Positions 22,849-27,067 of a stretch of 35,565 nt of DNA are shown in pieces; positions within the stretch are counted from its first letter, which is position 1; each line of letters begins with the position of its first letter. The position numbers and the translations under genes were made by a program. The stretch covers positions 1 to 35,565 of the forward strand of contig JBHLLP010000035.1 in NCBI GenBank assembly GCA_048885525.1, written 5' to 3'. This DNA is from Candidatus Hermodarchaeota archaeon (lineage in GTDB: Archaea > Asgardarchaeota > Lokiarchaeia > Sigyniarchaeales > SOKP01). The notes beneath the pieces are model-generated. The model saw only the letters and a list, made by a program, of their open reading frames with translations. It was not told where the DNA came from and made no database searches.

Positions 22849-23649
22849 TTGAAAACCTTACCTATTAGAGTTTTTAGATCTAGGTTTGATAATATACTAA
22901 AAAAAATACCTACTTTGGGTAAACTATTATCAAGCTTGTTTGGGTTTTCTGAATACTATATTCTTGAACTTTTTCGAAAACTTGATAAAAAATATGGCAT
23001 CTACACTATGGGTTTTGTCAATAGGTATTTTTTAAAAGGAAGATGGGGAGGAAGGGTTGTTCCTTTAAGTAAAAATATTGATTTTGATACAAAATTCATT
23101 TCTTCACAAGAAATTTTAGAGATAATAAGTCGTTCGAATATAGGAGGTATAGGATGGTGTTATTGTCGATGGATTCAAAGAAAATATGAAAAACCTAATT
23201 GTGATAATCCTATTTTTTCATGCATTCATTTAGGTTTTGGAAGATCTCTCTATGAAATCCCATATAAATCTTACAATCTAAAGAAAGCATCGAAAAGAGA
23301 AATTGTAGAATTATTAGAAGATTGTGATAAAAGAGGCTTAGTTCATCAATTAATTTATTTCCCTAATCCTCAATTTTATTATATTATATGTAATTGTTGT
23401 CCCTGTTGTTGTGTTGTGTTGAGGAAATTTCTTGAATATGGATCTCCACAGATGATCAAGAGTGATTTTATAGCAAAAACAGATTTATTGAAATGTAAAA
23501 ATTGTGGAAAATGTGAAGAATGGTGCAATTTCAAAGCACGAGATTTTACTAATAATAAATTATATTTTAATTCGCTAAGATGTTTTGGATGTGGAATTTG
23601 TATCTCTAAATGCCCAAATAATGCAATAAAGCTAATAAAAAAAGAGTAA
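22849..23649 (+). CDS. 4Fe-4S dicluster-binding protein
   Basis: CYCR, GLVH, ICNCCPCCC, C..C..C...C and C.GCG.C...CP..AI. Confidence 0.85.
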   Translation: MKTLPIRVFRSRFDNILKKIPTLGKLLSSLFGFSEYYILELFRKLDKKYGIYTMGFVNRYFLKGRWGGRVVPLSKNIDFDTKFISSQEILEIISRSNIGGIGWCYCRWIQRKYEKPNCDNPIFSCIHLGFGRSLYEIPYKSYNLKKASKREIVELLEDCDKRGLVHQLIYFPNPQFYYIICNCCPCCCVVLRKFLEYGSPQMIKSDFIAKTDLLKCKNCGKCEEWCNFKARDFTNNKLYFNSLRCFGCGICISKCPNNAIKLIKKE

Positions 23650-25168: not shown

Positions 25169-26176
25169 ATGAGATTTATTTCAGGCTTAAAGAGTTTGTC
25201 AAAAAAGAGAATTTTATTAGTCATTGTTATTCTTTTTATTGTTTCATGGTTTTTATTCGCATTTGGAGTTGAAGTGTTTCCAAATGCTACATTTAAGAGA
25301 TATTTTTTGATATTCTTAGGTGTTTTAGCTGGGTTTACATTTGTTCTATTTATTATGTCATTTATCATCCCTCTTGATAAAATGCGTGTTATAATAATTA
25401 TTATATCCATAGGTTTAACGCTTCCAGTTATGTGGATCTTTGGAGGGATTATCAATATTTTCACTTTTTTTTGTTACATTGCCAATATTGTTATAACTGC
25501 GTTTTTCGCTTATAAATTTTGTATGGACACTTCTATTAAGGTTGATGACTACTTATATGAGAAAAAAAGTTCCAGAATATTCACACGTATTATAGAGTTT
25601 GTTATTTTTTTCCTTCTTAGTTGGTGGTTAACATCTTTAACCATAAGATTTTTCGTTAGTTTCGCTAATCCTAATGTTCAAAATTTAGCAAGGATCTTTT
25701 TCAATCTATTCCTTATAGGATTAGTTTTATTGGGAATCGTCGTTATTAGATTATTGTTTACCAAGAAATTTGCTGCCTATATATCCTTCTTTATAGTACT
25801 GACATTCTTTTATGTTCTCTATATTATAGTTGATCTCTGGGCAGAATTTATGTTTCCTGATACTGTGGGCTATGATCTTTTGTCATTTTTTATTGATTTT
25901 CTTCTATTTTTATTCATAATTGGATCTATTTATGATAGAGTAGATTATATAAAAAGTAAAATCAAAATTTTAAGAGTTGATACAATATCATTATTCATAA
26001 TTTTAATGAAACTTATCGTCCAGATTATAGAGATTTTAAGAGACATTAATCCTCCAGCTAACTTATCACAGATTCTAATCCTTCAAGCCCAGATACTATG
26101 GATTTTTTTTATGGTTTTTAATTTGATAGTTGGAGCTTATACTATTTTCAGACATAAAGAAGGGAAAAAATCATAA
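25169..26176 (+). CDS. Hypothetical polytopic membrane protein
   Basis: 335 aa, about ten TM helices. Confidence 0.75.
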   Translation: MRFISGLKSLSKKRILLVIVILFIVSWFLFAFGVEVFPNATFKRYFLIFLGVLAGFTFVLFIMSFIIPLDKMRVIIIIISIGLTLPVMWIFGGIINIFTFFCYIANIVITAFFAYKFCMDTSIKVDDYLYEKKSSRIFTRIIEFVIFFLLSWWLTSLTIRFFVSFANPNVQNLARIFFNLFLIGLVLLGIVVIRLLFTKKFAAYISFFIVLTFFYVLYIIVDLWAEFMFPDTVGYDLLSFFIDFLLFLFIIGSIYDRVDYIKSKIKILRVDTISLFIILMKLIVQIIEILRDINPPANLSQILILQAQILWIFFMVFNLIVGAYTIFRHKEGKKS

Positions 26177-26269
26177 ATTTCTTTATTTTAAGAATAACCT
26201 TTAATTAACGTTTTTAAGAAATACTTAATAATATTTTATAAAAAATAATTTTTGTAAGGCAAGAAAATT

Positions 26270-26518
26270 ATGAGTGAAATTGATTCACATCCAATTAGAA
26301 AAGTAAGTATCAAAACGATATTAATTATTATCTTCAGTGTTACCGGATTAGCAGCAATAATCATTACTCTTGCAATCCTTTTTTCCAACTCAGGAACAAA
26401 TGGTGGTGGAGGATGAGCGTGTTTGATAGGTTATTTCGATATATACAAATCAGAGATTAGTCCTTTTATAAGATATATGTTCGAACAAATCCAGAAATTT
26501 GAGGTTATTCCAATATGA
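26270..26518 (+). CDS. Candidate 82-aa single-TM selenoprotein (Sec49 encoded by TGA 26414-16)
   Basis: Not in the ORF track. MSEIDSHPIRKVSIKTILIIIFSVTGLAAIIITLAILFSNSGTNGGGG-TGA-ACLIGYFDIYKSEISPFIRYMFEQIQKFEVIPI-TGA; TATA box TTTATAAA at 26235-42; SECIS-like hairpin directly downstream. Without recoding it would be a 48-aa peptide ending GGGG. Confidence 0.7.
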
Positions 26519-26590
26519 TTTCCGAAAGGAATGATCCTTGCTAAAAAATGCTAGTAGCAAGCTGACCGACCTTGTACTGGTTTCGGAAAT
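26518..26590 (+). promoter_or_regulatory. Eukaryote-like SECIS element (3' UTR)
   Basis: ATGA 26531-34 / TGA 26563-65 sheared G-A core; upper stem CTTGCTA 26537-43/TAGCAAG 26555-61; unpaired A-run at the start of the apical loop; perfect basal stem ATTTCCGAAA 26518-27/TTTCGGAAAT 26581-90. Confidence 0.75.
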
Positions 26591-26602: not shown

Positions 26603-27067
26603 TTAAAAAAACCCCCATATAATTTTTTTAATCGGTTTCATTTGCATAATTCTACGGAGGTCTGGATCAGTTGGACTCAGATCTTCGTGAGCCCAGGTTT
26701 TATACTGAGGATATTTCTCAATAAGTTTAATCCATCCTTTCATAAAACCCTTAGTGTGTTCTTTGTAGTTTAATATTTTAATATCTATCTTTATGAGAAT
26801 ACCTTGCAAGATTGTCCATTTTCCACTTTTTTCCTCATATTCATCAAAAAGTATTGAAGCTTTATTGTTTTTATCTATATTTTTTAATCGTTTACTAGTT
26901 TTGCTTAATGAAGTAAAGAATGAATTATCAACGAATGAAAAGCAAATAGGGACTAAATGAGGAAGGTTATCTTCTGGATCGATAGTTGCAATTCGAGCTA
27001 CTCGAAGATTAACAAGGAAATTTTTTTCAGCCTCGGAAAAAATTGATTCCTTTACCATAGAAATCAT
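26603..27067 (-). CDS. Pyridoxamine 5'-phosphate oxidase-like (PPOX class, possibly F420-dependent) protein
   Basis: RVARIAT.D....PHLVPICF, K.LKNI..N..ASILFDEY.E..W..L, EKYPQY, P.K...WG. Confidence 0.85.
   Translation of the reverse strand: MISMVKESIFSEAEKNFLVNLRVARIATIDPEDNLPHLVPICFSFVDNSFFTSLSKTSKRLKNIDKNNKASILFDEYEEKSGKWTILQGILIKIDIKILNYKEHTKGFMKGWIKLIEKYPQYKTWAHEDLSPTDPDLRRIMQMKPIKKIIWGFF

Follow-up and report, generated by a model that had tools for sequence, protein, structure and literature searches.

The selenoproteomes of Asgard archaea have been compiled mainly by homology to known families, and all of their published members are soluble enzymes of redox or energy metabolism (PMC11227280, PMC13188914). 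Seven families are described, namely SelD, FrhA/VhuU, HdrA, FrhD/VhuD, Prx-like, AhpF-N and DsbA-like (Huang 2024, PMC11227280). The lokiSECIS genes (HdrA-VhuD, VhuU and PrxL; PMC4989117) carry a 3' element described as type I eSECIS-like (PMC11227280), with a geometry of AUGA, a 9-nt arm, an 11-nt A-rich loop whose last base is G, a second 9-nt arm and GA (Mariotti 2016, PMC4989117), and a minimal UGA-to-SECIS distance rule has been proposed for it. The gene analysed here shares this 3' element, the same minimal-distance logic and the same machinery, whereas its predicted product is membrane-anchored, shorter than 90 aa and devoid of a recognisable fold, and no Cys homologue of it was found in the collections searched. 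We describe an apparently new Lokiarchaeia family of single-pass membrane selenoproteins, in which the recoding system is known, and its use here well supported, while the protein is not.

Other small selenoproteins offer partial parallels. SelK has a transmembrane helix at residues 20-42 and selenocysteine (Sec) at position 92, and in both SelK and SelS a long disordered linker (about 50 residues in SelK) leads to a Sec that lies in the cytoplasm. Selenobacteriocin TIGR04081, UXX-star and KCU-star (PMC13188914) are short, place Sec after Gly near the C-terminus and are often cut short by gene callers, all features of the new family as well; they rely on a bacterial in-gene SECIS, whereas the new family has a 3' SECIS, no NCBIfam match and no consistent maturase neighbour. 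For 56 members examined, none of the seven published Asgard families appeared as a Pfam or NCBIfam match, in line with the opinion of the initial annotation that the protein is unlike the known archaeal selenoproteins. A 2026 inventory of 119 prokaryotic selenoprotein families likewise holds no recognisable match, searches of Pfam, NCBIfam and the PDB returned generic helix matches only, and no description of the family was found in a literature search whose scope excluded most subscription journals.

The window, by which we mean the whole 35,565-nt stretch of DNA that was analysed, comes from a genome of 3.58 Mb with 29% GC and 99% completeness. The gene upstream has its relatives chiefly among MAGs of Promethearchaeia/Promethearchaeota, which assigns the host to the Lokiarchaeia (Promethearchaeia). 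The Sec machinery that a selenoprotein presupposes, and that the initial annotation had proposed to look for, is found there: tRNA-Sec, SepSecS, a PSTK-type kinase, EFSec and a TGA-containing SelD are all present, with EFSec matching archaeal SelB best among solved structures (E 4.5e-73), while the scores of PSTK and EFSec fall below curated cut-offs. The HdrA and VhuD genes of the host contain TGA as well. The SepSecS gene sits beside tRNA-Sec, and these two cluster with EFSec within 8 kb (G000:C8:64962-72757); a tandem selD pair, one copy with TGA and one without, lies at G000:C16:19043-21411. Since SepSecS occurs in 146 of 154 genomes of the order, the co-occurrence of the family with Sec machinery does not discriminate.

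With UGA read as Sec, the coding sequence (26270..26518, plus strand, as are all features of the gene given below) comprises 82 aa and a stop; standard gene calling ends the product at 48 aa. The ATG at 26270 opens a short basic N-terminus predicted to be cytoplasmic (residues 1-15, 26270..26314), which is followed by a single transmembrane helix by hydropathy (residues 16-39, 26315..26386; AlphaFold helix 14-41, pLDDT 77-87) and by a polar linker (residues 40-48, 26387..26413) that ends in four Gly, so that GGGG directly precedes the in-frame TGA at 26414..26416, the predicted selenocysteine 49. Ala and Cys51 (26420..26422), a likely Sec partner in a U-x-C motif, come next, then 31 sense codons forming a predicted C-terminal amphipathic helix, which is also the UGA-to-SECIS spacer (26423..26515), and a terminal TGA (26516..26518). 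The order of short N-terminus, one helix, Gly run, TGA, Ala-Cys, 31 sense codons and second TGA is as initially annotated. AlphaFold models the 82-aa protein with low overall confidence (pTM 0.38) as two helices joined by the Sec linker. The TATA box that had been noted is present as a TATA-like sequence at 26235..26242, a possible archaeal promoter; it counts for little in an AT-rich genome of 29% GC and is kept in the closest homologues only (L002, L003, L034). On the upstream side the gene is flanked by one for a multi-helix membrane protein of 335 aa that belongs to no known family (25169-26176, plus strand), and on the downstream side by a convergent gene (26603-27067, minus strand) for a PPOX-class flavin/F420-binding protein.

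Searching with the read-through protein gave 18 homologues, each with the TGA, and order- and phylum-wide profile searches extended the family to 96 distinct members from about 91 genomes, with a median core identity of 31%. These span five genera of the host's family, and one tentative member belongs to another family of the class. The gene is found in most genomes of one large Lokiarchaeia family, where it is mostly single-copy and widely kept; it was not found in the other Asgard lineages searched, nor in three single-contig genomes of the neighbouring family, where the RNA model is insensitive. The tentative and most distant member (L168, genome G058) has its Sec at a distance of 37 nt from a hairpin whose 9-10 bp stem pairs perfectly; the covariance model described below missed this hairpin. 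A sister subfamily in nine genomes (L078, L157-L162, L165, L179) consists of a helix, an Asp-rich linker and C-x(1-3)-U, with a tail of at least 40 aa and a lokiSECIS 112-115 nt away, and it often shares a genome with a main-family gene.

All 96 members, which were gathered with a profile that includes the TGA position, have TGA as the codon following the Gly run, and none has TAA or TAG there, which the initial annotation had taken as the sign of an ordinary stop. By comparison TGA accounts for 240 of the 1847 stops of long ORFs in the host genome (13%), and the family's own terminal stop is TAA in 69 members, TGA in 20 and TAG in seven. The base following the recoded TGA is G or C in 86/96 members as against 62/240 genomic TGA stops. 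Neither the constancy of the codon nor the bias of the next base is how a stop codon behaves. In a library of 1.8 billion proteins the family appears mostly as forms that end at the TGA site or in which the TGA was called as Trp, and gene callers with TGA set to Trp independently read four homologues through the site; the Trp residues in these entries reflect TGA under code 4 and were not accepted as sense codons.

Cys-for-Sec homologues are the usual independent proof of a selenoprotein. The TGA aligned to Cys that had been suggested as a check was not recovered: neither 400 Asgard genomes nor 62 database matches yielded such a homologue. Several look-alikes were set aside. P0056 and P0058, which have Cys, lie on non-Asgard contigs, their neighbour gene not being found in the 400 Asgard genomes and a nearby SmpB gene pointing to bacteria, and L077 is a duplicated, possibly damaged copy. 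Two further groups, Cys-rich proteins with a single helix from other Asgard families (L151-L155, L177, L180) and Gly-run peptides lacking Sec (L069, L070), match through the helix only and have no SECIS; they are at best possible homologues. The former group has Cys at every fourth residue and an amphipathic end, and its members are possibly sulfur analogues or peptide-modification targets.

Immediately 3' of the gene is a lokiSECIS (26521..26587), consisting of the AUGA core (26531-26534), an arm (26535-26543), the loop (26544-26554), the second arm (26555-26563) and GA (26564-26565). The hairpin at 26531-26565 is an exact match to the published geometry (PMC4989117), with 9-nt arms and an 11-nt apical loop that begins with five A and ends with AG, and it bears out the hairpin with an AUGA/UGA core and an apical A-run that had been proposed. 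A strict pattern for the element matches five times in the genome and not at all in each of five order-3 Markov genomes; in the window there is one match against 0.01 expected, a figure that is generous given that the pattern was written after seeing the family. An Rfam search gave no SECIS or other meaningful match, and the minimum-free-energy fold of the single sequence lacks the SECIS stem, which is seen by covariation across homologues. The hairpin is present in 96/96 members, 37-125 nt downstream of the recoded TGA, and an alignment of 65 copies has compensatory changes at 17 of 18 pairs, with 84% of cells pairing; none of 500 shuffles equals this, and neither shuffles nor slid registers come near. 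A covariance model (R1) built solely from the family's own hairpins was then run on the host genome. Its seven matches are the 26270 locus, HdrA, two VhuD genes and three other conserved TGA-bearing ORFs, so that a candidate selenoprotein ORF accompanies every one, and because the model also picks up HdrA and VhuD, the hairpin is the element used by known selenoprotein genes. At its base, a side hairpin (26569-26581) and a basal helix (26521-26526/26582-26587) form a three-way junction (26521-26587). Similar sequence follows the HdrA and VhuD SECIS elements of the same genome, and no description of this side hairpin was found in the literature consulted.

The two TGA codons of the gene stand at very different distances from the AUGA core at 26531: 117 nt for the first and 15 nt for the second, close to the initial estimates of about 115 and 15 nt. 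Across the family the recoded TGAs are 37-125 nt from the core, while 19 of the 20 terminal TGAs are between -1 and 18 nt from it, and these spacing classes agree with the minimal-distance rule and so support the assignment of the first TGA to Sec and of the second to termination. The second stop is TAA or TAG in 76/96 homologues. The single exception among the terminal TGAs is a close homologue (L034:1492-1740, minus strand) with U-P-C-TGA, whose frame continues past the second TGA; with the SECIS 108 nt away, this codon may encode another Sec. We regard recoding of the TGA at 26414-26416 as Sec as strongly supported by comparison of the homologues. In the mechanism that we propose, the 3' lokiSECIS would direct Sec insertion at the UGA 117 nt upstream through the host EFSec and tRNA-Sec, and the UGA 15 nt from the core would be too close to the SECIS and would terminate translation.

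If instead the first TGA were an ordinary or mostly used stop, the product would be a 48-aa membrane peptide with Gly-Gly at its end, and the hairpin would serve some other use or a rare selenium-dependent read-through. The truncated forms of 42-54 aa found in databases fit such a peptide, as do the near-neutral sequence of the tail and the lack of a Cys homologue in the collections searched. A real stop would be expected to drift to TAA as the second stop has done, and here it has not; moreover HdrA and VhuD carry the same element as this hairpin, which is never less than 37 nt away, and the tail remains open and amphipathic. We therefore consider this reading highly improbable.

The evidence from the tail concerns its character more than its residues. 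Its length after Sec varies from 1 to 61 residues, and by a simple counting method on 27 disjoint pairs dN/dS is 0.77 in the tail (0.57-1.03, a range that includes neutrality) versus 0.43 (0.36-0.50) before Sec. Nevertheless 79/93 members have no stop in the frame until close to the SECIS, where shuffling predicts 27.8. Of 27 divergent tail clusters, 22 are more amphipathic than their own shuffles, compared with 15 of 27 in each other frame. Open frame and amphipathicity beyond the controls argue that the tail is translated and is selected for character, not sequence. Protein-level conservation past the TGA, put forward earlier as a check on read-through, is accordingly upheld for the frame and weak for individual residues. 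With no TAA or TAG at the first site, an open frame beyond it and the machinery present, the initial reading of the gene as a selenoprotein stands.

Around Sec itself, 78/96 members have Gly at -1 and 73/96 have it at -2, its codons varying synonymously. In 59/96 there is a Cys at +2, for which both TGT and TGC are used. The 82-aa U-x-C protein initially predicted is correct in length, and its motif is the commonest in the family, yet it is restricted to these 59. Cys also occurs at +4, -2, -3, +1 and +3, so that 86/96 members have one within five residues of Sec and ten have none nearby; the presence of Cys on either side indicates that closeness rather than position is conserved. Ten members end 1-2 residues after Sec, and in four of these a Pro-Pro-Pro run comes before the end. 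On a quick tree (50 columns, weak support) these tail-less members are scattered, and placing them takes three label changes or more; the simplest explanation is convergent, repeated loss of the tail, at least three times.

The charges flanking the helix suggest the orientation of the protein. Lys and Arg are commoner before the helix than after it in 96/96 homologues (means 4.4 and 0.1), and the linker after the helix is neutral to acidic in all 96. By the positive-inside rule this places the N-terminus in the cytoplasm and the Sec outside, and on these charges we think it likely that Sec faces outward from the cell. The protein would insert with its basic N-terminus inside, and a flexible Gly linker would hold Sec some nine residues out from the outer face of the membrane; the amphipathic tail would probably lie on the outer leaflet.

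This predicted topology bears on the likeness to SelK and SelS that had been remarked on. The shared layout is real: the proteins are small, with a short N-terminus, one helix, Gly-Gly before Sec and a 3' AUGA-GA SECIS, and Sec lies within three residues of the end in 10/96 members, although 33 residues follow it in the protein described here. The proposal of true kinship between this archaeal family and SelK/SelS, in which Sec would face the cytoplasm and the protein would serve the quality control of membrane proteins, could draw on this layout, on the members that end 1-2 residues after Sec, including the four with Pro-Pro-Pro, and on the host being an Asgard archaeon. The charge bias gives the opposite topology, the helix-to-Sec linker is acidic and only about nine residues long where SelK has about 50, and the Pfam profiles SelK_SelG (PF10961) and Selenoprotein_S (PF06936) give no match at the family loci at E up to 10. 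In addition, the SelK-like ends do not group together on the tree, and the searches of the other Asgard lineages gave no member of the family. Descent from a common ancestor with SelK/SelS is on this showing very improbable, and the likeness is an analogy.

As to function, we lean slightly towards a putative surface-tethered Sec/Cys redox arm, by analogy with Sec chemistry. Sec and its neighbouring Cys would cycle between a selenenylsulfide and a selenolate/thiol, and at the cell surface the arm, together with some partner, would act on disulfides or peroxides by reducing or reshuffling them. A precedent for such chemistry is SelS, in which a Sec-Cys loop acts as a reductase in vitro (PMC13524514). 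The ten members without a nearby Cys imply that a two-residue redox cycle cannot be universal, and no consistent redox partner was found among the neighbours of the family's genes. The recurring neighbours vary by clade: the 335-aa multi-helix membrane protein, which adjoins the gene in 25 members, together with MFS transporters; an ARMT1-like phosphatase; or TrmB.

The main rival to the redox arm is a selenoprotein that works stoichiometrically and not as a catalyst, its Sec and Cys serving at the surface to bind soft metals or metalloids (Hg, Cu, As) or to retain selenium. Selenolate has a high affinity for soft metals, the protein is tiny and has no enzyme fold, and both the variable Sec/Cys spacing (+1, +2, +3, +4, -2, -3) and the Asp-rich run before C-x(1-3)-U in the sister subfamily would suit binding. 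Set against these, the recurring neighbours include no metal-resistance genes, and the gene, usually present as one copy, is broadly retained in its family instead of patchy, which leaves such a binding or storage role unlikely.

Less probable still is that the helix serves as a cleaved signal or leader and that the Sec part is released or modified as a secreted peptide, either selenobacteriocin/RiPP-like or with a Gly-Gly-Cys sorting signal. The basic N-region, hydrophobic helix and Gly-Gly before Sec do resemble precursor and sorting motifs, and a radical SAM gene adjoins 11/96 members. That gene is divergent, mostly confined to one clade and absent at 85/96 loci, so that no conserved adjacent peptide-modifying radical SAM enzyme was found in the roughly 1.2-1.5 kb examined on each side; the matches listed for 56 members include no NCBIfam model of a selenobacteriocin or of CTERM; the helix of about 23 residues is long for a cleaved signal; and members ending 1-2 residues after Sec would release almost nothing. 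In GlyGly-, MYXO- and CFI-box-CTERM signals, a Gly/Cys motif precedes a transmembrane helix, and a basic cluster forms the end. The tails here are amphipathic, mostly below transmembrane hydropathy, or absent, a layout different from that of CTERM sorting.

The redox arm remains our preferred function for the family, which we consider likely to represent an outward-facing, membrane-anchored selenoprotein type undescribed in archaea and one of several small ones hidden in Lokiarchaeia. If so, the Asgard selenoproteome would be about twice as diverse as published, and the SelK/SelS-like layout of a helix and terminal Gly-Gly-Sec would have had several separate origins in Asgard archaea, each with a eukaryote-type SECIS; the family thus bears on whether such layouts can arise by convergence. 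A membrane-anchored type would be added to the published list, and SECIS-first searches recover what homology surveys missed. The 96 natural UGA-to-SECIS spacings also bracket the minimal distance at 18-37 nt, below the roughly 50 nt quoted for eukaryotes, and the gene offers a minimal system for asking how a eukaryote-type SECIS works without SBP2.

The three other conserved ORFs found by the covariance model are all on the plus strand. The first (G000:C1:79278-79649) encodes about 120 aa with no Pfam match and ends with H-A-D followed by TGA-TGA-Ala-Asp codons; homologues occur in 47/53 genomes of the genus, and the tandem TGA and a SECIS (at 79775, about 130 nt on) are present in 7/7 readable ones (L190, L224-L235). 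It is a candidate Sec-Sec protein, with a fold that appears ubiquitin/MoaD-like by eye only. A 61-aa two-helix membrane ORF beside tRNA-Gln (G000:C70:200-382, SECIS at 473) has A-U-G between its helices, and its TGA and SECIS are kept in two other genomes (L221-L223), making it a second candidate membrane selenoprotein. The third, a zinc-ribbon ORF (G000:C40:22844-22957, SECIS at 22991), ends in S-F-K-TGA-TAA, has another conserved TGA three codons before its ATG, and is kept in at least three other genomes (L236-L240).
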